Source of the DNA: Escherichia phage CJ20
Sequence record: MT533174.1
DNA: 64,000 nucleotides
Strand: one strand, 5' to 3'
Shown: one piece after another, positions 6,828 through 62,573 of the stretch
Position numbering within the stretch: position 1 is the first letter of the stretch
Layout of the letters: each line of letters begins with the position of its first letter
Made by a program: the position numbers and the translations under genes
The notes under the pieces: model-generated
Told to the model about the DNA's origin: nothing
What the model saw: only the letters and a program-made list of their open reading frames with translations
Database searches by the model: none

Positions 6828-7161
6828 TATCGATTTATCTGATTTAGATAATTTCGAGAAAGATGCGGAGGGAGCTAAGGCTCCTTCTGTACCTTACTAC
6901 GAAAAAAGTTTGGAGATTATCCGGCAATCCATGGGAACTGTACGGCAGGAAATTCTGTTATCACTTCCCGATGGGTCCAGTCACATTGTGTACGTAACCG
7001 GAATTAAAATTGAACCATCTGGAAAAGTTTCAGTTGATTTCGGCACCCCTTCTGAAGACCGCAAAGCGGAGCTTGCTGTGCATGTAGAAAAGTGTGTTAC
7101 AATGCAAATACAAGATGAAATTGATAAAATTAAAATGAAAAAGAGGTGGTGGAAGTGGTAG
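6817..7161 (+). CDS. 40: gp40-like protein (head vertex assembly factor in T4)
   Basis: 114 aa ORF between uvsX and gene 41, the gene 40 position in T4; assignment by synteny and size only. Confidence 0.55.
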   Translation: MMNDIDLSDLDNFEKDAEGAKAPSVPYYEKSLEIIRQSMGTVRQEILLSLPDGSSHIVYVTGIKIEPSGKVSVDFGTPSEDRKAELAVHVEKCVTMQIQDEIDKIKMKKRWWKW

Positions 7162-8585
7162 AAACTATTTTATCCCAGCTACTCTTTAACAAGGAATATT
7201 TTGTTAAAGTCTGGCCATATCTGAATAACACATATTTTGAAAAGGGTCCTGCAAAGACCCTTTTTAATACGATTAACGAACACGTAAAAGAATATCAAGC
7301 GGTACCAACTAAGACTGCACTTGATATCGCGCTCGACAGTTCTGACCTTTCTGAAGTCGAATATGAAGGCACAAAGAAACTCTTAGGAGTCCTGGCCGAT
7401 ACTCCAGAAGACCAGGAATGGTTGGTTAAAGAAACCGAGAAGTATGTACAGAAGTCTGCGATGTTCAATGCCACATCCAGGATTATCGAAATCCAGAGTA
7501 ATGCCGAACTTCCGAAAGATAAACGTGATAAACGAATCCCGGATATTGGTGCTATCCCTGACATCATGCGCGATGCATTGTCTATCTGTTTTGACTCTGC
7601 TCTGGGCCATGACTGGTTAAACGATTACGAGGCTCGATTCCAGACTTATCTGAACAAATCGAAGAAGGTTCCGTTCCGTATTAACATCCTGAATAAAATC
7701 ACGAAAGGTGGAGTTGAGTACGGTACAGAGAACGTTTTACTGGCCGGGACAAACGTCGGGAAATCCCTTGGACTTTGTTCGTTAGCGGCTGACTATCTTC
7801 AGACTGGTCATAACGTTCTTTATATAAGCATGGAAATGGCTGAAGAAGTATGTGCCAAACGTATTGATGCCAACTTGCTGGATGTGTCTCTGGATGATAT
7901 TGATGAAGGTCATGTGTCATGGGCGGAATATAAAGCTAAGATGGAAAAATGGCGTGCTTCCGGGACTCTTGGGACTCTGAAGATAAAACAATATCCAACT
8001 GGCGGTGCTCATGCAGATACCTTCCGCGCATTGCTGAATGAGTACAAGCTGAAGCAAGGGTTTGTGCCGGATGTGATTATTGTTGACTACCTGGCAATCT
8101 GTGCAAGCTCAAGACTGAAAACGTTTACCGAAAACAGTTACGGCCTGATTAAGATGGTTGCAGAAGAACTTCGTGGTCTGGCTGTTGAGAAAAATGTAGT
8201 CCTGTGGACTGCAGCGCAGACAACCAGGGGCGCGAACGTTGCAGCTGAGATTGATATGGCTGACATCGCAGAATCCTTTGGTATTGCTCACACGGCCGAC
8301 TTTATGTTGGGTGTTGTTGAGACCGAAGAATTCGCTCAAATGGGTCTACAGTTAATCAAACAGCTTAAGTCTCGTTATGGCGATAAGAACTACTATAATA
8401 AATTCAAGATGGGTGTTAAGAAAGGCAATCAGCGCTGGTACGAGGTTGATGATGATTCAGCTCCTAAACAAGGCCCTACGGTTAAAGAAGCCACCGGTGA
8501 GATGAATCGCCAGGCTGAAATGAATAGACAAACCAGGGTCAACAGGAGCGACCTGGACGACCTTGCTGCTCAAATGAAATTCTAA
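7146..8585 (+). CDS. 41: Replicative DnaB-like helicase gp41
   Basis: 479 aa; Walker A GTNVGKS; N-terminus aligns with T4 gp41; start codon ambiguous (GTG at 7146 or 7155). Confidence 0.95.
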   Translation: MVEVVETILSQLLFNKEYFVKVWPYLNNTYFEKGPAKTLFNTINEHVKEYQAVPTKTALDIALDSSDLSEVEYEGTKKLLGVLADTPEDQEWLVKETEKYVQKSAMFNATSRIIEIQSNAELPKDKRDKRIPDIGAIPDIMRDALSICFDSALGHDWLNDYEARFQTYLNKSKKVPFRINILNKITKGGVEYGTENVLLAGTNVGKSLGLCSLAADYLQTGHNVLYISMEMAEEVCAKRIDANLLDVSLDDIDEGHVSWAEYKAKMEKWRASGTLGTLKIKQYPTGGAHADTFRALLNEYKLKQGFVPDVIIVDYLAICASSRLKTFTENSYGLIKMVAEELRGLAVEKNVVLWTAAQTTRGANVAAEIDMADIAESFGIAHTADFMLGVVETEEFAQMGLQLIKQLKSRYGDKNYYNKFKMGVKKGNQRWYEVDDDSAPKQGPTVKEATGEMNRQAEMNRQTRVNRSDLDDLAAQMKF

Positions 8586-8603
8586 AGACCTTCGGGTCTT
8601 TTT
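8585..8603 (+). terminator. Rho-independent terminator (AAGACC-TTCG-GGTCTT + T run)
   Basis: Hairpin starts at gene 41 stop, followed by TTTT. Confidence 0.65.
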
Positions 8604-8612
8604 CATTTAGAG

Positions 8613-8642
8613 GTTTACATCACCATAAAAAGGGTGTACTAT
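8613..8642 (+). promoter_or_regulatory. Early sigma70-type promoter
   Basis: TTTACA 8614-8619, 17-bp spacer, TACTAT 8637-8642; followed by leader motif CCATCAACTACTGATGAGGA 8647-8666. Confidence 0.5.
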
Positions 8643-8673
8643 TATCCCATCAACTACTGATGAGGATAATAAA

Positions 8674-8922
8674 ATGTTATTAGTTAATGTGCATTACCAG
8701 TTCAAATCTGAAGAAGCTCTCCAAAAGTATGCTGATATTTGTGAGCATAATAAAAGAACAGCTGCCATTGTTGGTCTGAAGCCTTTTAAAATTTTGGATT
8801 GCTCCTTGAACAGAGCAAGGCGCTGGTGTAGTGTTGCCTGTCATGCTTCAGTTGAAGGGAATGATTATTTTTTCATTACTTTCAATGCACAAGATTTTCA
8901 TTTAATTAATGAATTAAAATAG
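8674..8922 (+). CDS. Hypothetical protein (82 aa)
   Basis: ATG 9 nt after GAGGA of leader motif; Cys-containing; no homology recognised. Confidence 0.45.
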   Translation: MLLVNVHYQFKSEEALQKYADICEHNKRTAAIVGLKPFKILDCSLNRARRWCSVACHASVEGNDYFFITFNAQDFHLINELK

Positions 8923-8923
8923 T

Positions 8924-8951
8924 GTACAAGCCCCTTGTCTTAGGACATAAT
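8924..8951 (+). promoter_or_regulatory. Early sigma70-type promoter
   Basis: TGTACA 8924-8929, 16-bp spacer, CATAAT 8946-8951, then leader motif TGATTCCATACTGAG. Confidence 0.5.
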
Positions 8952-9001
8952 GATTCCATACTGAGTTACACAATAAACCAACTGTTAAAAAGGAAAACCA
9001 T

Positions 9002-9304
9002 ATGTTTAATCAAACCGACATGAATCGTTACTATTTTGGACAATTCGCTCGCCGTGATGAAAACTGTGCTGCTCTTATCGCATCAGGCATTCAAACTGGT
9101 AAATTAATAAAGCTCAAAAGCGATGTTCAACCTTCATCTGTTCGCAGCTCTCTTCGTGAGTATCTGCTTGCAGGCGGTGAAGTGTACGTCATCGCCGAAC
9201 CTTTTGTTAACGTGTGCGATGATTACACAATTAGTGTGACTGTTATGCACCCAACTACTGGGAAAATTCGTTGTCTGACTATGCACAACTATGAGTTGGC
9301 ATAA
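9002..9304 (+). CDS. Hypothetical protein (100 aa)
   Basis: ORF with own promoter and terminator; no homology recognised. Confidence 0.45.
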   Translation: MFNQTDMNRYYFGQFARRDENCAALIASGIQTGKLIKLKSDVQPSSVRSSLREYLLAGGEVYVIAEPFVNVCDDYTISVTVMHPTTGKIRCLTMHNYELA

Positions 9305-9311
9305 GTGAACA

Positions 9312-9334
9312 AAGGGGCTTACAGCCCCTTTTTC
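9312..9334 (+). terminator. Rho-independent terminator (AAGGGGCT-TACA-AGCCCCTT + T run) overlapping next promoter -35
   Basis: Perfect 8-bp stem, TTTTT tail; CTTACA in the hairpin is 17 bp before TATAAT 9341-9346. Confidence 0.65.
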
Positions 9335-9346
9335 TTATGTTATAAT
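9318..9346 (+). promoter_or_regulatory. Early sigma70-type promoter embedded in terminator hairpin
   Basis: CTTACA 9318-9323, 17-bp spacer, TATAAT 9341-9346, leader CCTATCAACTACTGGAG. Confidence 0.45.
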
Positions 9347-9372
9347 GACCCTATCAACTACTGGAGAATAAA

Positions 9373-9690
9373 ATGAAAACCATTGATTGCAAGGCAGAAT
9401 ACAAAGTTTATTATCATGGGTCAAGCTCTAATGCTGGAATCCAAAATATGCTTTGTCCTCCTGATGCAACTGGTGTTCTGTCAGAAGTTGGGCGTAAGAA
9501 AAATTTAGGGCGTGTGTTTTTTACTGAAGATATTGGTTTGGCGCGTATCTATGCAGGAAGAGCAGCTCGCTCATATGGAGGAGAACCCCGTCTTTATCGT
9601 GTGATTGCACCTGTTGACGTGGTTTGTTTAAATGATACTAAAGGCGCAACAGTTTATCACGCTGCCTGGGCGTTTTGTGAGGAAATCTAA
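9373..9690 (+). CDS. Hypothetical protein (105 aa) with ADP-ribosyltransferase-like motifs (YHGS and FTEDxGxAR)
   Basis: Motif FFTEDIGLARIYA mirrors SFTEDYGIARDFA of the ModA/ModB-type protein at 15854; ends at TAA directly followed in frame by next ATG. Confidence 0.5.
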   Translation: MKTIDCKAEYKVYYHGSSSNAGIQNMLCPPDATGVLSEVGRKKNLGRVFFTEDIGLARIYAGRAARSYGGEPRLYRVIAPVDVVCLNDTKGATVYHAAWAFCEEI

Positions 9691-9896: not shown

Positions 9897-9928
9897 GTTT
9901 ACATCAAAGGGATAATGCTGTATATTAT
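9897..9928 (+). promoter_or_regulatory. Early sigma70-type promoter
   Basis: GTTTAC 9897-9902, TATATTAT 9921-9928, leader CCTATCAACTACTGAGGAG. Confidence 0.5.
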
Positions 9929-9954
9929 CCCTATCAACTACTGAGGAGATTGAA

Positions 9955-10248
9955 ATGAAAAAGTTATTAATCGCAGCAATTCTTACCGTAGCATCATGTG
10001 GTACAGCTCCAGTTACTGCTGGACTTGATAAAGACCTTTGTGAGTGGTCTATGACCGCCGACCAGACTGATGTTGAACATCAGATTTATGCTGATATCAT
10101 GAACATTACTAAACGTGACCGTCCAGATATGGTTAAAGAAGTATCTGACCAACTGGCTTCTGGTGACGTTATGCAGTATAACTATGTTCTGTATTGCGAT
10201 GCTTCATTTGACAACAGCAAGATTGTTCAATGGGTTACAGGTGAATAA
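9955..10248 (+). CDS. sp: Spackle-like periplasmic protein (signal peptide)
   Basis: 97 aa, same length as T4 Sp; N-terminal signal peptide; motif DKDLCEWSMTADQT recalled from T4 Sp; located between genes 41 and 61 as in T4. Confidence 0.55.
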   Translation: MKKLLIAAILTVASCGTAPVTAGLDKDLCEWSMTADQTDVEHQIYADIMNITKRDRPDMVKEVSDQLASGDVMQYNYVLYCDASFDNSKIVQWVTGE

Positions 10249-10249
10249 A

Positions 10250-10687
10250 ATGATTAACAGAACTTTAGTTATCAAAAAACTTCGTTGTAAAAATCAAAAT
10301 GCACAAGCATACAGGATGTTTTGGAGCGACGAAATTCAATACCTGGGTTATTTTCTTGTTGATAGTGATAATAGAATTACGTTTGCTCATAAACTTCTTA
10401 ACAAAGAATTAAACCATTGGCAAGAACTTATTGCGGTCAAGTCTAAATTATTTTCGCGCAATACAATGCACCAATTGGTTTATTTTTTCGCTGACGGTAT
10501 TCCCGACAAGGTTGAGTTTGACGGGTTTGAATTTAAAGACATCAACCCTGATAATGAATTGAATGACAGTATTGTTAATATGGGTATCCCTGACAAGTAC
10601 ATTAAAAACAGTCTTTTGAAACTTCTGGAAAATCCTGTTTATTCAGTTGACGACCAGATTTTTAATGCTTTCATGAAGCGAGATTAA
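10250..10687 (+). CDS. Hypothetical protein (145 aa) ending DDQIFNAFMKRD
   Basis: ATG 10250 after sp stop; 3' end is one copy of a 35-bp direct repeat. Confidence 0.45.
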   Translation: MINRTLVIKKLRCKNQNAQAYRMFWSDEIQYLGYFLVDSDNRITFAHKLLNKELNHWQELIAVKSKLFSRNTMHQLVYFFADGIPDKVEFDGFEFKDINPDNELNDSIVNMGIPDKYIKNSLLKLLENPVYSVDDQIFNAFMKRD

Positions 10688-10688
10688 T

Positions 10689-11045
10689 ATGAGTTATTAT
10701 AATTTTCTGAATTTTGAACTGGCGAGCAATAATGATGGTAATGCTCATTATGAATTTCGTGAGCCTCGGTTTAATCAGGCGATTGGTTATATTATCGTTA
10801 AAGATAATGTTATTATAAAGGCTCGCTCATTTATGGTAATGAGTGGACCTTATGAAGATACTCGTGGCTATCCATTTGATAAAAAGAATGTACGCGATTG
10901 TGCGGCATGGATAACCGGAAACCCTGAAATTGGGGTCATGATATCTACTGAAGCGAATGACATTCTGGAAGGGGTCGTCAAAGCTCAAGAACCGCCTACT
11001 GATATTGATGACCAGATTTTTAATGCCTTCATGAAGCGAGGTTGA
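10689..11045 (+). CDS. Hypothetical protein (118 aa) ending DDQIFNAFMKRG
   Basis: ORF exactly bracketed by direct repeats 10648-10682 and 11006-11040. Confidence 0.5.
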   Translation: MSYYNFLNFELASNNDGNAHYEFREPRFNQAIGYIIVKDNVIIKARSFMVMSGPYEDTRGYPFDKKNVRDCAAWITGNPEIGVMISTEANDILEGVVKAQEPPTDIDDQIFNAFMKRG

Positions 11046-11046
11046 T

Positions 11047-11268
11047 ATGTATGTTTTGACCCAATTCTCTAAAGCAATATATAGTTACCCTTGCCAGTGG
11101 GAAGTCTTTATTGATACCCCTTCGCCTAAGTATGGTGTTTTTGGGCGAGTAACTACGCAAGCTTACGTTGCGCGACCGACTAAACGTCAGATTCGTAAAC
11201 TTAAAAAGGCACATCGTCAATTGATTAAAAGAAGGGAACAATATGAGTGCAATGTGTACGGGCTCTAA
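11047..11268 (+). CDS. Hypothetical protein (73 aa)
   Basis: ORF in series with neighbours; basic C-terminus; no homology recognised. Confidence 0.4.
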   Translation: MYVLTQFSKAIYSYPCQWEVFIDTPSPKYGVFGRVTTQAYVARPTKRQIRKLKKAHRQLIKRREQYECNVYGL

Positions 11269-11434
11269 GATTTCGGTCTTCCAGATTTTTGAAGAATATG
11301 AAATCGTGTCGCAAGACCAAGAAGCAATCCATGTTATCGCTGATGATGGTGTTACCTGGATTATTCCGTTGTATCATGAAGACACTTATGAAGTGACTGA
11401 TGCAAATGGTGATAAAGCTATCTTCGTTGTATAA
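11243..11434 (+). CDS. Hypothetical protein (63 aa)
   Basis: Overlaps previous ORF by 26 nt; acidic; no homology recognised. Confidence 0.35.
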   Translation: MSAMCTGSKISVFQIFEEYEIVSQDQEAIHVIADDGVTWIIPLYHEDTYEVTDANGDKAIFVV

Positions 11435-11653: not shown

Positions 11654-12682
11654 ATGTCATATATTGATAGAGAATTTGCAGTCAAAGCTTTATCGTATCA
11701 ACCACGTTACAGAGAAGTCACCGGGAGCACATTTAAGGCAAACTGTCGTTGTAAGGTTTGTGGTGACTCCCAGAAAGATTCGCACAAGGCTCGATTCTGG
11801 GCGTATACTAATCCGGCCGATGGCGCGGTTTACGTGAAATGTTTTAACTGTGACTACTCCACGCATATAAGCAAATACATAAAAGAGTTTGAGCCAGATT
11901 TACACCGGGAATATATGGTCGAGAAGTATAAGGAGAATGCATTTGGGCGGCAACGCACTGAAGTTGTCGAAACTCCGAAAGAACCAGAAAAAACTCCGGT
12001 TATTGAGCAGCTTGCTTTTTGTGAAAGACTCGATACTTTACCAGAAGCACATCCGATAGTTAAGTATGTAAAAAGTCGGTGTATTCCGAGCAATGTTTGG
12101 AACCGGTTATGGTTTACAAACCAATGGCCTGCATTAGTTAACTCCGTCAATCCTGGGACGTATAAGAATGAAACGAATGAGCCACGCTTGGTTATTCCTA
12201 TCTTCAACGGCAAAAAAGAAATCGAATCTTTCCAAGGACGAGCTCTTCGCAAAGATGCACCACAAAAATATATCACAATCAAAGCTCACCCAGAAGCTTC
12301 CAAAGTCTATGGCGTAGACAAGATTGACGAGCGCAAGCGTGTATGGGTAATGGAAGGTCCAATTGATAGTTTGTTTATCCCTAACAGCATTGCGATAACC
12401 GGTGGAACATTAGCATTGGAAGCCGTTCCTTATGCTGAAACCAGAGTATGGGTGATGGACAACGAGCCAAGACATCCGGATACGATTAAACGTATGAAGA
12501 AGCTCGTTGAAGCTGGCGAAGCTGTTATGTTCTGGGACAATGCACCATGGCATACGAAAGACATAAATGAGATGATTAAATCAGAAGGAGCAACCCCTGA
12601 ACAAATCGAATCATATATGGCCGATAACGTTGCTCAAGGGTTGATGGCGAGAATGCGACTTTCGAAGTACGCAAAAGTTTAG
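11654..12682 (+). CDS. 61: DNA primase gp61
   Basis: 342 aa; zinc-binding CRCKVCGDS...CFNC; TOPRIM-like region; matches remembered T4 gp61. Confidence 0.93.
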   Translation: MSYIDREFAVKALSYQPRYREVTGSTFKANCRCKVCGDSQKDSHKARFWAYTNPADGAVYVKCFNCDYSTHISKYIKEFEPDLHREYMVEKYKENAFGRQRTEVVETPKEPEKTPVIEQLAFCERLDTLPEAHPIVKYVKSRCIPSNVWNRLWFTNQWPALVNSVNPGTYKNETNEPRLVIPIFNGKKEIESFQGRALRKDAPQKYITIKAHPEASKVYGVDKIDERKRVWVMEGPIDSLFIPNSIAITGGTLALEAVPYAETRVWVMDNEPRHPDTIKRMKKLVEAGEAVMFWDNAPWHTKDINEMIKSEGATPEQIESYMADNVAQGLMARMRLSKYAKV

Positions 12683-16414: not shown

Positions 16415-16427
16415 GACATGTTAAGAT
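16399..16427 (+). promoter_or_regulatory. Early sigma70-type promoter
   Basis: TGTACA 16399-16404, 17-bp spacer, TAAGAT 16422-16427; followed by leader CCTATCAACTACTGATGAGGA 16431-16451. Confidence 0.45.
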
Positions 16428-16458
16428 GTTCCTATCAACTACTGATGAGGATAATAAA

Positions 16459-17073
16459 ATGCTGTACGCAAGTCACCAATTAGCAGAGTACATCAATGCA
16501 GTTAAATGTGAATATTTTCGTGAAAATACCCAGATTGAAATTGATGAAATTTACTCTGAGTTGGAACAGAGTACACTCTGGCAGTGTATGGAAAATAAGC
16601 CAGACACTATCCAGGAAACTTTGAACAAAATTATTCGTAAGAATTTGACTTCTGCTGTGCCTGGTAAGTTATATCGCGGGATTTCTAAGAAAACTTTGGC
16701 ATATCTTGAAACCGTAGGATGTGTTGGTGCTACGATTGAGTTTGACCGTGTAATGAGTTTCTCCAAAGATTTCAAAGTCGCACGTAACTTTGCTTCCTTT
16801 AGCTTCTATGGAACCAAAAATATTTTCTGTATTAATGATGCACCATTCGCATTTGATTATCAGGAAGCGATTTTTAAAATGATTTGTGCGGCACCTCCTG
16901 AAGAGTTCAATGGACTATATCCTGAAATAACTCGTTCTTCAAACTTGCAATTAGTAAATGATGAAGATGAGATGATGTTCCCTGCGGGAACTACGCTACG
17001 CGTGGACTCTATTGAGAGCATTTATAGATGGGAAGACTATAAATTATGGAATCTTTCCGTTCTTTCTTACTGA
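16459..17073 (+). CDS. ADP-ribosyltransferase, ModA/ModB family (second tandem copy)
   Basis: 204 aa; LYRGIS, MSFSKD, DEDEMMFPAG motifs; ATG 16459 with SD GAGGA. Confidence 0.7.
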   Translation: MLYASHQLAEYINAVKCEYFRENTQIEIDEIYSELEQSTLWQCMENKPDTIQETLNKIIRKNLTSAVPGKLYRGISKKTLAYLETVGCVGATIEFDRVMSFSKDFKVARNFASFSFYGTKNIFCINDAPFAFDYQEAIFKMICAAPPEEFNGLYPEITRSSNLQLVNDEDEMMFPAGTTLRVDSIESIYRWEDYKLWNLSVLSY

Positions 17074-17155: not shown

Positions 17156-17183
17156 TGTACATAAAAGATGAATAGTGTATAAT
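17156..17183 (+). promoter_or_regulatory. Early sigma70-type promoter
   Basis: AGTAGTGTACA, TGTACA 17156-17161, TATAAT 17178-17183, leader TGATTTCATACTGAG. Confidence 0.5.
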
Positions 17184-17229
17184 GATTTCATACTGAGTTT
17201 TCAATCGTCCGTAAGATGAGAAAAATATC

Positions 17230-19834: not shown

Positions 19835-20510
19835 TGCTATTATTGACTTTGAAACTCTGGGAAACGGCTCGAAGGGAGCCGTTATTGACCTGGCTCTGAT
19901 TACATTCGAATCTGACCCTGCTATTGTGGAATCATTCGAAACTCTGGTTAATCGCGGCAAACGTATTAAGTTCAGCCTCGAATACCAAAAAGGAAAACGT
20001 CTGTTTGATACAACAACCATGGGTTGGTGGAAAAAACAATCACCAGAAGCTCGTGTTAACCTGGCTTCTTCTGCGCATGATGTTGATACTCTGACCGGTA
20101 TCCAACAGGCGATTGACTATCTGAATGGCAATGGAATTAACAAATACGAAAGCCTTATGTGGTGTCGTGGAATGTCTTTTGACTTCCCATTGTTTGTTGA
20201 CCTTATCCGCGACCTACAGCGCAATGAGGGGATTCCTGAGCGTGAATTGAATACCTATGACCTGGAGCCGGTTGTATTCTGGAACCAGCGAGATATCAGG
20301 ACAGCCATCGAAGCCTTGTCACTCGTCCGTAAGATGTGTGAAACCCCATTACCGAAAGGGACTTTAGATGGATTTGTGGCGCACGATTCGGTACATGACT
20401 GCGCGAAAGATATTTTGATGTTGAAGTATGCCCAGCGCTATGCTCTTGGTTTAGATGAAGTTCCTTCCGAAGAAGATGCAGACCCGTTATCTTTACCGAA
20501 AAAACGATAA
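19827..20510 (+). CDS. dexA: Exonuclease A DexA (DnaQ-like 3'-5' exonuclease)
   Basis: 227 aa; N-terminal DFETLG exonuclease motif; synteny after dda. Confidence 0.85.
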   Translation: MIDAIIDFETLGNGSKGAVIDLALITFESDPAIVESFETLVNRGKRIKFSLEYQKGKRLFDTTTMGWWKKQSPEARVNLASSAHDVDTLTGIQQAIDYLNGNGINKYESLMWCRGMSFDFPLFVDLIRDLQRNEGIPERELNTYDLEPVVFWNQRDIRTAIEALSLVRKMCETPLPKGTLDGFVAHDSVHDCAKDILMLKYAQRYALGLDEVPSEEDADPLSLPKKR

Positions 20511-20517
20511 AAAGTAG

Positions 20518-20546
20518 TGTACAAGGCCAATGGAAAGAGACATAAT
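20518..20546 (+). promoter_or_regulatory. Early sigma70-type promoter
   Basis: AAAAAGTAGTGTACA, TGTACA 20518-20523, CATAAT 20541-20546, leader TCATCAACTACTGATGAGGA 20551-20570. Confidence 0.5.
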
Positions 20547-20577
20547 CATCTCATCAACTACTGATGAGGATAACAAA

Positions 20578-20835
20578 ATGATTACTTCTTTTGAAATTGG
20601 CCAACAATATGAAATGTCTGCTCTTCAAGCTGCTGAAGCAGGTCTGACTAAAGCGTTTGAATGTGCATTTGCAAATATTCGTGGTAAAATCTTTACTGTC
20701 AATAAAATTGCGGTATATGATAAAGAAACAGACATGAACAAAGGCATCTACCTGAACGTGTCAAATGCAAAAGGTCGTCGTGAAATTATGGTTGTACAAC
20801 CTAATCAACTGGCGATGTTCAATAAGGTTGCATAA
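20578..20835 (+). CDS. Hypothetical protein (85 aa)
   Basis: ATG 8 nt after GAGGA of leader motif. Confidence 0.45.
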   Translation: MITSFEIGQQYEMSALQAAEAGLTKAFECAFANIRGKIFTVNKIAVYDKETDMNKGIYLNVSNAKGRREIMVVQPNQLAMFNKVA

Positions 20836-21590
20836 TGAAACCAGAATTTATTGACTTTGATGTTGTAAGTATGTATGTTCGCCCAATTAAACCATTAAAA
20901 CTTGAGAAACAAAATATGACTATTGAAATTAACAAAACTTATCAACTGATTGAACCTATTATTCAAAACGCAGCTATGGTTTCTGGATATAATACTTTGA
21001 CTGATGCTTTAGGTGAAGGCGAATTTATTGTTGAAACTTTTGTAAAAAGTAACTGGTTTGATAAAGCATATATTCTACATGCACGTCGCCTTGATACAAA
21101 TGAAGTAGAAAAAATTATGGTTTATGAAGCTGAGATTGAACTCTTTAAAGAAGTTGAAGAAACTCCTATCAAAGTTGGTAAAACCTACCAGCTTATTGAA
21201 GATGATAGTCAATTTGGAAAGACTGTCGCAATGCATGCTGGTTGGCGTGTACTAAAAGGTATTTTTGGATTTACTCCATTTACCGTTAAAACAGTTAAGT
21301 ACCACAATCACCAAAGCATCTTTGAATTTACTGCAGTCAATGAATCAGGTGACAATCTTGAAGCTATCCTTTATCCGCGTGAATCTGTACTGCTGAAAGA
21401 AGTTAGCGAACTGGGTGACCCTGTTGACTTGCTGTGTAAACCAGTTCAAATCAAACGTCCATTTAATAGTTCCATTTGTGGTTGGGTAACAGACCAGTGG
21501 ATTGAAGATGGTGTTGAACTCCTGAACGTCGTCCATGCTGGTGAATTTACTGTTGTCCCACGTTCCATGGTTGTTGAAATTTTTAATTAA
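20835..21590 (+). CDS. Hypothetical protein (251 aa) with internal repeat and C-terminal DQWIEDGV domain
   Basis: KTYQLIE occurs twice; C-terminal 35 aa paralogous to C-terminus of ORF 21667-22158. Confidence 0.5.
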   Translation: MKPEFIDFDVVSMYVRPIKPLKLEKQNMTIEINKTYQLIEPIIQNAAMVSGYNTLTDALGEGEFIVETFVKSNWFDKAYILHARRLDTNEVEKIMVYEAEIELFKEVEETPIKVGKTYQLIEDDSQFGKTVAMHAGWRVLKGIFGFTPFTVKTVKYHNHQSIFEFTAVNESGDNLEAILYPRESVLLKEVSELGDPVDLLCKPVQIKRPFNSSICGWVTDQWIEDGVELLNVVHAGEFTVVPRSMVVEIFN

Positions 21591-21595
21591 ATTTG

Positions 21596-21624
21596 TGTAC
21601 ATACTCTTGGGACCAGAGTATAAT
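21596..21624 (+). promoter_or_regulatory. Early sigma70-type promoter with -10 inside hairpin loop
   Basis: TGTACA 21596-21601, TATAAT 21619-21624; hairpin GGGACC(AGAGTATAAT)GGTCCC 21609-21630. Confidence 0.5.
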
Positions 21625-21666
21625 GGTCCCACTGGAGAATAAACTTATTAACCAAGAGAGAAAATT

Positions 21667-30924: not shown

Positions 30925-30954
30925 TGTACATCAGTATGGAGTCTAATGTATAAT
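30925..30954 (+). promoter_or_regulatory. Early sigma70-type promoter
   Basis: AAAAAGTAGTGTACA, TGTACA 30925-30930, TATAAT 30949-30954, leader TGATTCCATACTGAG. Confidence 0.5.
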
Positions 30955-30988
30955 GATTCCATACTGAGCTACTAACTGGAGAAACAAA

Positions 30989-31252
30989 ATGAAATTTAAA
31001 TTTTACTATGTCAAGCATAAAGTTACTGGGGAATTTGTTGCATTTACAACTTCATCCAATAATCAAGGTGATACTTTTACTTCATTGTTCTTATCCAGAT
31101 GGGATTCAGACCAGCCTTATTTGTCCACAAAAGAGCATCTTCAACGTATGGCGAAGGGCGAGCTAAACGATTCTTGGGATAATATTGTGAATAATTGTAT
31201 CAAGAAAGCTATCCAAGAAAATCAACTTGAAATCATTGAGGTGGAATTGTGA
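30989..31252 (+). CDS. Hypothetical protein (87 aa), tandem paralog A
   Basis: N-terminus MKFKFYYVKHKVTGEFVA; paralog of next ORF. Confidence 0.5.
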   Translation: MKFKFYYVKHKVTGEFVAFTTSSNNQGDTFTSLFLSRWDSDQPYLSTKEHLQRMAKGELNDSWDNIVNNCIKKAIQENQLEIIEVEL

Positions 31253-31607: not shown

Positions 31608-31635
31608 TGTACATCTCCGGTGGTTGTAGTATAAT
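31608..31635 (+). promoter_or_regulatory. Early sigma70-type promoter
   Basis: TGTACA 31608-31613, 16-bp spacer, TATAAT 31630-31635, leader CCTATCAACTACTGGAG. Confidence 0.45.
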
Positions 31636-31661
31636 GAACCTATCAACTACTGGAGATGATT

Positions 31662-31778
31662 ATGAAAAAGTTACTTAAAGCCATTTGGAACATGTTTGTG
31701 CTGTTTGTTGTCCTGAGCATTTTCCCAATTGTTTTTATGATTGACCATGTGCGTGTTTACTTTAACTATTTCTTTTGA
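31662..31778 (+). CDS. Small membrane peptide (38 aa)
   Basis: ATG 31662 after leader motif; one hydrophobic helix. Confidence 0.3.
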   Translation: MKKLLKAIWNMFVLFVVLSIFPIVFMIDHVRVYFNYFF

Positions 31779-32252: not shown

Positions 32253-32597
32253 ATGTCTAAAGTATTTTTTGGTAATGCTAAAGTTATGTTCTTTAAACAG
32301 ATTAGCCTTCAGGAGGCGTCGGAGGCATTCAATCAAAGTATGATTCCTGACGTACATCCAAAAGTTATGACGAGTGCTGATTTCGTTTTCGTCCAAGACC
32401 CGGAAACAGGCTTTTATCGGTTCATTAAATTTCGTATGAGTATGGAGCCAGGTTATCATAGTGCTTACTACGTGAGTTATGAAAATGTTATCAAAGAATT
32501 GCGTAATACCTATAAGCGCGCTTTGACCCCGCTGAATAAGGTGTATAATGCTTCCTTTTATACGAGCGGATTTATTTTAGAACAACTTCAAAAATAG
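32253..32597 (+). CDS. Hypothetical protein (114 aa)
   Basis: SD GAGGAAAATATTATG; no homology recognised. Confidence 0.45.
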   Translation: MSKVFFGNAKVMFFKQISLQEASEAFNQSMIPDVHPKVMTSADFVFVQDPETGFYRFIKFRMSMEPGYHSAYYVSYENVIKELRNTYKRALTPLNKVYNASFYTSGFILEQLQK

Positions 32598-32626
32598 TGT
32601 ACATACTCTTGGGGTCAGAGTATAAT
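32598..32626 (+). promoter_or_regulatory. Early sigma70-type promoter with -10 inside hairpin loop
   Basis: TGTACA 32598-32603, TATAAT 32621-32626; hairpin GGGGTCA(GAGTATAA)TGACCCC 32611-32632. Confidence 0.5.
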
Positions 32627-32670
32627 GACCCCACTGGAGCACAAAACTTTAACTTACTGAGGAAATTAAT

Positions 32671-34960: not shown

Positions 34961-34974
34961 ATTTTAAAAAGTAG

Positions 34975-35003
34975 TGTACAATCCCCTTGACCTGATGCAT
35001 AAT
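34975..35003 (+). promoter_or_regulatory. Early sigma70-type promoter
   Basis: AAAAAGTAGTGTACA, TGTACA 34975-34980, CATAAT 34998-35003, leader TGATTCCATACTGAG. Confidence 0.5.
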
Positions 35004-35052
35004 GATTCCATACTGAGTTACAAACTGAATCACAAAAACTTTGGAGAATAAA

Positions 35053-52042: not shown

Positions 52043-52057
52043 ATTTTCAAAAAGTAG

Positions 52058-52086
52058 TGTACAAGTCCTTTGAGCTAAGGCATAAT
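52058..52086 (+). promoter_or_regulatory. Early sigma70-type promoter
   Basis: AAAAAGTAGTGTACA, TGTACA 52058-52063, CATAAT 52081-52086, leader CCATCAACTACTGATAACAACTGAGGA. Confidence 0.5.
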
Positions 52087-52124
52087 GATTCCATCAACTA
52101 CTGATAACAACTGAGGAAATAAAA

Positions 52125-53458: not shown

Positions 53459-53465
53459 AAAGTAG

Positions 53466-53494
53466 TGTACAACCAAATGGGGCTATGACATAAT
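53466..53494 (+). promoter_or_regulatory. Early sigma70-type promoter
   Basis: AAAAAGTAGTGTACA, TGTACA 53466-53471, CATAAT 53489-53494, leader TGGTCCCATACTGAG. Confidence 0.5.
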
Positions 53495-53531
53495 GGTCCC
53501 ATACTGAGTTACCAAATAACTGGAGAATAAA

Positions 53532-53771
53532 ATGAAATTACAACGTGAGAGCATCAAAGATTCAGAAGTTAAAGGTAAATGGTACTTCACAATCCAGGGT
53601 AACAATCCAGAAGCTCTGGAAAAAGCTGAACAAGCTTTGTGTGAAATGGGTTGGAAAGATGAGTGTGATGGTTGTCCTCTTTATGAAGATGGCAGCTCGT
53701 CTGGTTTCTGGATTCACCACTCTGATGTTGACCAATTTAAAGCTGACTGGAAAGTTGCTAAGAAAGCGTGA
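53532..53771 (+). CDS. Hypothetical protein (79 aa)
   Basis: SD GGAGAATAAAATG; contains CDGC. Confidence 0.45.
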   Translation: MKLQRESIKDSEVKGKWYFTIQGNNPEALEKAEQALCEMGWKDECDGCPLYEDGSSSGFWIHHSDVDQFKADWKVAKKA

Positions 53772-60959: not shown

Positions 60960-60970
60960 TAAAAAAGGGG

Positions 60971-60999
60971 TGTACAAGCCCCTCCTTTCTATACATAAT
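60971..60999 (+). promoter_or_regulatory. Early sigma70-type promoter
   Basis: GGGGTGTACAAGCCCC hairpin containing TGTACA 60971-60976, CATAAT 60994-60999, leader CCATCAACTACTGATGAGGA 61004-61023. Confidence 0.5.
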
Positions 61000-61030
61000 G
61001 GTTCCATCAACTACTGATGAGGACTAAAAC

Positions 61031-61264
61031 ATGTTAAACTTAATTACAAATGAAAGAGTTACACAGGCATATGGTGACAGTAATGACGGAATCTATGTCT
61101 ACAAGGGAGACCGCCGGATTGGTTTCATTACTGACCTGAAGGCCAAATTGTTAAAAGAACTGAAAGCTCAAACAGGTGATTCTGGGTTTAGAGCAAGAGC
61201 CAAAAAGAAAGATGAACGCCTGGGTGCCAACTCTTTTGGTCCCCGGGGTTACAACCGCTACTAA
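61031..61264 (+). CDS. Truncated paralog of the Alc N-terminus (77 aa)
   Basis: N-terminal 45 aa (GDSNDGIYVYKGDRRIGFITDLKAKL) parallel Alc (GDRHDGIYVYKGTKKIGLMTDLRKKL) encoded immediately downstream. Confidence 0.5.
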   Translation: MLNLITNERVTQAYGDSNDGIYVYKGDRRIGFITDLKAKLLKELKAQTGDSGFRARAKKKDERLGANSFGPRGYNRY

Positions 61265-62412: not shown

Positions 62413-62516
62413 TTGAGTCTTGTATCGATGGGTCGGATGTCATTCTATTTGGCTTTACATGCTTTTGTTTTGGAATCGTGCTTAGCATGTGTATAAATGG
62501 TATTTTTGGAAAGTAG

Positions 62517-62545
62517 TTTACAAACTCTTGGGAGCAGAGTATAAT
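62517..62545 (+). promoter_or_regulatory. Early sigma70-type promoter with -10 inside hairpin loop
   Basis: TTTACA 62517-62522, TATAAT 62540-62545; hairpin GGGAGC(AGAGTATAAT)GCTCCT 62530-62551. Confidence 0.5.
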
Positions 62546-62573
62546 GCTCCTACGGATTATAAAATTTGAGGAA

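Follow-up and report, generated by a model that had tools for sequence, protein, structure and literature searches.

Two tandem genes of Escherichia phage CJ20 share an AdfA-type C-terminal peptide encoded by direct repeats

The region between genes 41 and 61 of T4-like phages has been proposed as an anti-toxin-antitoxin (anti-TA) island holding dmd, tifA (61.4) and adfA, and T4 was shown experimentally to duplicate and delete sequence in this region via microhomologies of 6-10 base pairs (bp) (PMC9391042). AdfA (anti-DarT factor A, T4 gp61.2) binds DarT1 in a two-hybrid assay, and binding and neutralisation of DarT1 have been shown only for the AdfA of T4 and for that of RB69 carrying R164H, the substitution through which RB69 AdfA gains both DarT1 binding and counter-defence, while T2 was reported to "naturally lack an adfA homolog" (PMC11825919). 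Here we describe a locus of Escherichia phage CJ20 (sequence record MT533174.1) in which two adjacent open reading frames, ORF145 and ORF118, lie in the slot after sp between genes 41 and 61, as AdfA does, and end in nearly the same peptide, which is encoded by a direct repeat. The window is the whole 64,000-nucleotide (nt) stretch that was analysed, and the coordinates of its features are collected in Table 1. We consider it probable that the two genes are tandem, diverged paralogues of the AdfA family which share a selected tail and whose copy number varies at the repeats.

The direct repeat and the peptide it encodes

The repeat spans 45 nt, with 41 of 45 positions matching and 358 nt from start to start, and forms the 3' end of both genes, each copy running through the stop codon into the start ATG of the gene that follows. 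It contains the 35-mer from which an original prediction for this locus had started (10648-10682 versus 11006-11040); its identity of 33 in 35, its exact bracketing of ORF118 and its setting between genes 41 and 61, marked by a helicase and a primase gene, were all confirmed. The two tails had also been called identical: they are indeed shared, but near-identical, the last residue being D in one and G in the other. ORF145 ends in VYSVDDQIFNAFMKRD and ORF118 in PTDIDDQIFNAFMKRG, in both cases directly before the stop codon. At the end of copy 2 the last codons and the stop read CGA GGT TGA T ATG, which places GAGG (11038-11041; its counterpart in copy 1 is GAGA at 10680-10683) 5 nt before the next ATG. 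This GAGG is probably the ribosome-binding site of the downstream DUF7279 gene, so that the end of the repeat would serve two purposes.

A degenerate back-translation of DDQIFNAFM, the core of the tail, has no match in the window beyond these two sites when up to 3 mismatches are allowed, and the number of matches expected from 100 shuffles is 0.00; the repeat is thus real and non-random. It differs in kind from the other direct-repeat families of at least 30 nt in the window, which are either intergenic with promoter-like TATAAT/CATAAT hexamers (families D1-D7) or have secondary copies below ~80% identity. A repeat-like stretch inside sp (10073-10117; 62% nucleotide identity, in frame, VEHQIYADIMNITKRD versus the tail VDDQIFNAFMKRD), overlapped by a terminator-like hairpin call at 10067-10083, is probably due to chance.

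Both proteins carry DDQIFNAFM-x-(R/K)-(G/D) at the extreme C-terminus, a motif that is invariant in the full-length family representatives and that is, judged from sequence comparison, the defining C-terminus of the AdfA superfamily. The last 14 residues of ORF118 match positions 198-211 of the 211-position Pfam AdfA profile (PF23813; gathering score, 27 bits), on which RB32 gp61.2 scores 429 bits; RB32 ORF033c, with 45% identity to ORF118, also passes the gathering score, reaching 32.2 bits over positions 113-211, the C-terminal half. The same ending is common to three PHROG families, namely phrog_8539 (ORF145), phrog_4122 (ORF118) and phrog_3781 (210 residues). A three-family profile searched against 1.84 billion representative proteins found 11, of which 7 are full-length: AdfA, whose match in two stretches agrees with a two-domain protein; ORF145; two types of ORF118; and the proteins P0035 (143 residues), P0062 (125 residues) and P0065 (120 residues). 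All 7 end in DDQIFNAFM-x-R-G/D. The last three each lie directly after sp on T4-like contigs, P0035 being followed by a 118-residue member in the tandem layout of the window, and every family member with examined genomic context is directly downstream of sp. Roughly 560 genomes carry the tail.

In metagenomes and IMG/VR, the degenerate-codon pattern for DDQIFNAFM occurs only in the three families, and no exact match to it was found in bacterial and archaeal genomes of 185,579 species, on which ground mimicry of a host peptide was rejected. A resemblance of the tail to clamp-binding C-terminal peptides was considered as well and set aside for the poor motif match. The original prediction had named two observations that would speak against a mobile cassette, namely a tail conserved across a wider paralogous family and the presence of both genes in all relatives. 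The former is what we find, the tail being shared by AdfA/gp61.2, phrog_4122 and phrog_8539; the latter is not, as the gene is absent from many relatives.

Across 65 tail copies, comprising 28 distinct DNA variants, all 8 degenerate codons of DDQIFNAFM vary synonymously (GAT/GAC twice, CAA/CAG, ATT/ATA, TTT/TTC twice, AAT/AAC and GCT/GCC/GCA), whereas the full-length family representatives show no amino-acid change in it; on contig L048, the two tails are only ~71% identical in DNA and the core peptide is unchanged. Such synonymous variation without residue change indicates that selection acts on the peptide. Purifying selection thus holds the tail constant, whereas the bodies are so diverged that their sequences can scarcely be recognised as related; that the tail DNA stays alike between copies, as repeats of 35-45 bp, would follow from the invariance of the peptide. 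We do not claim gene conversion or concerted evolution of the tails in the window, because their identity within the genome (~88% over 42 nt) does not exceed that of ORF118 tails between genera (~86%); for RB32 and VR20, whose tails show 1 and 2 differences, respectively, the case for gene conversion is only suggestive.

The bodies of the two proteins and the copy number of the unit

Upstream of the tail the two proteins had been taken as unrelated, which is probably not so. The link is clearest in RB32, where the C-terminal half of gp61.2 matches ORF033c in BLASTP with 34% identity (E 1e-8 with the tail, E 0.012 without it). Tail-free hhalign comparisons gave P 0.0017-0.0027 for ORF118 against either half of AdfA, P 0.015-0.021 for ORF145 against the AdfA halves and P 0.059 for ORF145 against ORF118; every real comparison beats its reversed-sequence control (P 0.096-0.49 for all controls, 0.096-0.42 for those of the comparisons with AdfA), and the alignments all pair the same hairpin motif. 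ORF145 and ORF118 correspond to one domain each and run collinear with AdfA's C-terminal half, and the joint multi-family alignment is collinear, with G33 and V37 invariant and the motifs F/Y-R, G-x3-V-x-D/N-N-x-I, F-x-x-N and G-F/Y-E in the same order in all three families.

The AlphaFold2 models point in the same direction. For ORF118 (mean predicted local distance difference test score, pLDDT, 80.6; body ~90), five strands were modelled (residues 6-15, 18-25, 30-38, 41-47 and 55-57), then a helix (65-76) and one more strand (82-85). The model of ORF145 (body pLDDT ~80-88, residues 103-145 below 50) has its elements in the same order, with five strands (5-11, 19-25, 30-37, 42-51 and 56-59), a helix (70-81) and a final strand (87-91). 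In Foldseek searches of BFVD, the reciprocal best matches outside each protein's own family include the other family, with E 7.1e-5 and 4.8e-4, values that use amino-acid identity and are inflated by the shared tail, and with template-modelling (TM) scores of 0.47-0.57, where ~0.5 is borderline. The best non-self match of ORF145 is the ORF118 family (E 4.8e-4), and the ORF118 model also matches a 212-residue protein which is probably an AdfA. Because the shared tail helps the Foldseek E-values, we rate common ancestry of the bodies as likely but unproven, the comparisons being supportive without being decisive in the case of ORF145.

The tail itself was modelled as a short helix of low pLDDT (residues 107-116 in ORF118, 134-142 in ORF145), preceded in both models by a low-confidence linker (100-105 in ORF118) whose length differs by family, from ~5-7 residues in ORF118 and 10-16 in AdfA to ~35 in ORF145. 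Docking motifs, or motifs that fold upon binding, would be expected to show such an arrangement of an invariant peptide on a variable tether. Variation within the bodies is also seen inside one family: the ORF145 homologue of VR7 and VR25 (P0030) is ~71% identical, with its central segment (about residues 55-115) replaced and its N-terminus and last ~30 residues unchanged, and is another mosaic allele.

The presence or absence of ORF118 is a polymorphism bounded by the repeats. ORF145 was found in 85 phage records, all of Gaprivervirus or Dhakavirus type, of which ~33 carry the Gaprivervirus-type ORF118 and ~52 do not. Relatives without ORF118 and with a single repeat copy, as the original prediction had foreseen, are thus common; in VR26 (Gaprivervirus) and MX01 (Dhakavirus), ORF145 and one repeat copy are followed by the DUF7279 gene, exactly ORF118 being missing. 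The corresponding slot of Tequatrovirus varies likewise, with the order sp, adfA, 118-residue gene, 61.1 in RB32, RB68, UFV05, 4E10 and SG1, the order sp, adfA, 61.1 in T4, PE37 and G157lw, and the order sp, 118-residue gene, 61.1 in T2 and UFV13. The extra unit of RB32 measures 358 bp, as in the window, and L048 holds a tandem pair of 143 and 118 residues. In UFV13 (locus L006 2479-2492) and T2 (locus L025 2157-2216), in which no gene separates sp from the 118-residue gene, the spacer is TAA-TTAGAGGTTAGT-ATG. It is similar to the final 12 nt of a tail (AGAGGTTAATATG) and may be what is left of a deleted adfA, or no more than a ribosome-binding site.

The tails of Tequatrovirus carry a marker at their 3' end. 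The AdfA tail ends in NKG (AAA) in 9 of 9 loci in which the 118-residue gene follows and in NRG (AGA) in 6 of 6 in which 61.1 follows, and the 118-residue gene's own tail always ends in NRG (AGA). Which 3' end the AdfA tail has thus goes with the gene that follows, a pattern that suggests, and would be produced by, a crossover inside a 33-nt identical block within the tail. The single copy of MX01, with GAC at its 5' end and GGT at its 3' end, is compatible with a chimera of two copies. The adfA gene itself is strongly mosaic in the eight loci compared (L005, L024 and L026-L031, representing RB32, T4, RB68, UFV05, PE37, G157lw, 4E10 and SG1): its first ~180 nt occur as two allele types ~52% identical in DNA and the rest is 88-100% identical, PE37 and G157lw joining an RB68-type 5' end to an RB32/T4-type 3' half. 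Given that T4 recombines at microhomologies of 6-10 bp in this region, repeats of 35-45 bp should be adequate substrates, and we think it rather likely that the 358-bp unit was gained or lost through the repeats.

We propose that ORF145 and ORF118 are candidate binders of toxins or defence proteins, of different specificity, with a specific body and a tail of constant function. The globular body would recognise a toxin or defence protein, and the variable linker would tether the constant short helix with its common function; the invariance of the peptide would make its codons form direct repeats; unequal homologous recombination between these would add or remove one 358-bp paralogue unit; and through such gain and loss the repertoire of the phage would vary. 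The residue R164 of RB69 AdfA (in "NINRIAS") aligns to D70 of ORF118 and Q75 of ORF145, in a confidently modelled helix of the body, and the position varies among the families. Here we further speculate that the tail helix might be a portable module that docks on DarT-type toxins at a conserved site, or on a different shared partner, with the fast-evolving bodies conferring specificity. The AdfA superfamily would then be a "variable head, constant tail" family of toxin neutralisers, and the tail DNA would provide the homology by which unequal recombination expands, contracts and swaps the heads, a possibility that we put forward only tentatively.

The original prediction had read ORF118 as a foreign cassette, unrelated to its neighbour and inserted or exchanged at short homologies, with the repeats as the footprint of that recombination. 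The exact bracketing of the gene, the one repeat copy in VR26, MX01 and most Dhakavirus records, which lack the gene, the demonstrated short-homology recombination of T4 and the fact that the annotators of SP18 found the best match of ORF118 in RB32 and not in JS98, unlike for neighbouring genes, would all agree with such an origin. Nevertheless, the tail is invariant family-wide and varies synonymously, which marks it as selected and not as a scar, the bodies appear alike in fold and motifs, and the same two-gene arrangement with its 358-bp unit is present in the Tequatrovirus slot of RB32 and RB68, besides the pair in L048. As such, we found no evidence for a mobile cassette carrying a foreign gene, and these observations favour an old paralogous pair, gained or lost later, over a recent foreign insertion, which we regard as unlikely. 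Less probable still is that unrelated bodies came to share a short C-terminal module copied between genes by recombination; the weak tail-free similarity of ORF145 to the other families and the mosaic relation of P0035 to ORF145, near-identical over the last ~30 residues and ~28% identical over the rest, would fit this idea, but the collinear motifs of three families, the identical order of secondary-structure elements, the reciprocal Foldseek matches, the hhalign scores better than those of reversed controls and the common slot of all families do not. It is very improbable, in our view, that the repeat is kept for a function of its DNA or RNA, be it as a recombination signal, regulatory RNA or processing site, with the peptide being incidental. 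The last 12-15 nt do carry GAGG, stop and ATG for the downstream gene, and this 3' part stays attached to whichever gene follows, but every degenerate core codon varies and the amino acids never do, the copies in L048 have drifted far apart in DNA, and neither promoter-like nor terminator-like sites fall on the repeats (10647-10691 and 11005-11049). Chance similarity or an assembly artefact is practically negligible given the result of the shuffles and the occurrence of the arrangement in dozens of independently sequenced phages. A +1 frameshift that would fuse ORF145 to ORF118 was weighed on paper as well, and no evidence speaks for it.

Several points weigh against the reading of ORF145 and ORF118 as tandem paralogues of the AdfA family with a copy number that varies at the repeats. 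ORF118 stays below the AdfA gathering score and matches with its tail only (23.2 versus 27 bits), and ORF145 has no Pfam match, with none to AdfA even at E up to 10. Without the tail, ORF145 is only marginally similar to the other families (hhalign P 0.015-0.059; BLASTP nothing or E 0.13), and the structural matches have the limits stated above. As for recombination, the case is weaker in the group to which the window belongs: the single copy of VR26 keeps the D codon of copy 1 and is not chimeric, so that either a crossover within the last 7-8 nt would be needed or VR26 would represent the ancestral state. The K/R marker may stem from a single historical event spread by later recombination, because the RB32/T4-type 3' half of adfA is present in every one-copy genome. 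In EAWsc9, both ORF145 and ORF118 are kept and the DUF7279 gene is gone gene-precisely, at a junction (locus L004 2650-2670) that shares only AATATG; gene-exact insertions and deletions thus arise here without long repeats. Finally, AdfA was found to be dispensable for the resistance of T4 to DarTG1 (PMC11825919).

Gene neighbourhood

Gaprivervirus phages, among them P479, SP18 and VR20, match the interval with 95-98% identity, and Dhakavirus phages (MX01 and the JS98 group) with ~86%. The gene order is 41 helicase, several small genes, dmd, sp, ORF145, ORF118, the DUF7279 gene, two small genes and primase 61, and the synteny around sp extends to SP18, VR26, MX01, EAWsc9, RB32, T4, T2, RB69 and metagenomic contigs. 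A single early transcript covering sp, ORF145, ORF118 and the genes beyond them probably starts from the promoter-like site ahead of sp.

Table 1. Features of the locus in the window
Feature	Position	Strand	Description
gp41-type helicase gene	7146-8585
Promoter-like site upstream of sp	9898-9926	+	TTTACA-17-TATATT, 10/12 matches; inside repeat family D7
sp (Spackle)	9955-10248	+	Pfam PF25676 T4_Spackle, E 1.4e-43; conserved left border of slot
ORF145	10250-10687	+	145 residues; phrog_8539, E 9.8e-92
Repeat copy 1	10647-10691	+	Codons for (V)DDQIFNAFMKRD, stop TAA, ATG of ORF118
ORF118	10689-11045	+	118 residues; phrog_4122, E 2.7e-52; present or absent among relatives
Repeat copy 2	11005-11049	+	Codons for (I)DDQIFNAFMKRG, stop TGA, ATG of DUF7279 gene
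DUF7279 gene	11047-11268	+	Pfam PF23945, E 3.5e-20; right neighbour
gp61-type primase gene	11654-12682

The public names of the two genes are inconsistent: ORF145 is a 'serine/threonine protein kinase' in EAWsc9 and a 'transcriptional regulator' in P8 and ESCO10, while ORF118 is a 'DUF2528 domain-containing protein' in EAWsc9 and its T2 homologue is labelled gp61.2. The kinase, regulator and DUF2528 names are unsupported by the Pfam and NCBIfam scans, the latter of which returned no matches. The DUF7279 gene overlaps the ORF at 11243-11434 by 26 nt in a different frame, an overlap also annotated in SP18 and VR26; on the metagenomic T4-like contig L044 (1871-2491) a DUF7279 gene lies upstream of sp and not downstream of the AdfA-like slot, and the helicase gene 41 is separated from the dmd region by an HNH endonuclease gene.

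Terminator-like, G+C-rich hairpins with T runs are located at 8584-8601, directly after gene 41, and at 9311-9331, after the ORF at 9002-9304, the second overlapping a promoter-like site at 9318-9346. Intergenic direct-repeat families have members at 8605-8680, 8916-8986, 9332-9379, 9912-9958, 16422-16464, 17172-17218, 20509-20583 and 21589-21643, and further members at 30943-30989, 31621-31672, 32591-32645, 34968-35038, 52049-52121, 53459-53538, 60962-61036 and 62510-62564. They combine a GTGTACA/TTTACA element with a box resembling TATAAT and, immediately ahead of start codons, the conserved leader CCATCAACTACTGATGAGGATAATAAAATG, and they look like T4-type early promoter/leader (PeSL-like) cassettes.

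Significance and comparison with known systems

Two "hypothetical" genes of Gaprivervirus and Dhakavirus are now attached to a known anti-defence family, and from the comparison AdfA looks like a tandem fusion of a module of ~100 residues that is also found as stand-alone genes. A single-domain paralogue ending in this tail exists in T2, the phage that was described as lacking adfA, and this paralogue, ORF145 and ORF118 represent candidate inhibitors of other DarT variants or of other toxins. In the 358-bp polymorphism we would have a natural counterpart of the short-homology recombination known from the laboratory evolution of T4, and the contrast between an invariant tail and hypervariable bodies offers a direct experimental handle. 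No paradigm is changed; rather, a known family and a known mechanism are refined. The link of ORF145 to AdfA, the single- versus two-domain view and the invariance of the tail are not described in PMC11825919 or PMC9391042, while the similarity of RB32 ORF033c to gp61.2 is already present in the GenBank annotation.

The closest relative of the two proteins is AdfA (PF23813; phrog_3781), which has the same C-terminal peptide, the same slot after sp in the 41-61 region and the hairpin motif G-x3-V-K-D-N-x-I, with R164 in the equivalent helix, and whose C-terminal half aligns to ORF118-type proteins, as in RB32. It differs in having two tandem domains in 206-216 residues, as opposed to one each in ORF145 and ORF118. 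RB32 ORF033c and the T2 protein labelled '61.2' (both phrog_4122) are ~45% identical to ORF118, agree with it in length, tail and the 358-bp unit, and appear to be its orthologues. The surroundings of the unit differ: it lies after a tail-bearing gene in RB32 but directly after sp in T2 and UFV13, the upstream partner is the two-domain AdfA in RB32 but ORF145 in the window, and the downstream gene is 61.1 in Tequatrovirus but the DUF7279 gene in the window.

With the amplification of dmd-tifA and the compensating deletions of T4 (PMC9391042), the locus shares the region, the direct repeats at the borders and the one copy that is left after loss. The microhomologies of T4 are 6-10 bp long, fortuitous and known from the laboratory (PMC9391042), whereas the tail repeats are 35-45 bp long and are kept by selection on the peptide, their recombination events being read from natural variation. 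Promoter-early stem-loop (PeSL) cassettes, the agents of modular shuffling in T4-type phages, are likewise associated with repeat-bounded, gene-sized insertions and deletions in hyperplastic regions, but they are intergenic promoter/terminator motifs (PMC2839356, PMC4122927), while the borders of ORF118 are coding 3' ends. PeSL borders were accordingly rejected for the ORF118 unit, neither repeat coinciding with a promoter-like or terminator-like site.

Type II antitoxins bind their toxins through a disordered C-terminal tail, which is the variable, toxin-specific part of the protein. By analogy only, the AdfA family resembles them in combining a globular part with a flexible C-terminal segment predicted to be helical, and in that AdfA neutralises a toxin by binding. 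The arrangement is nonetheless reversed, since it is the tail that varies in the antitoxins, whereas in the AdfA family the tail is invariant and the body varies.

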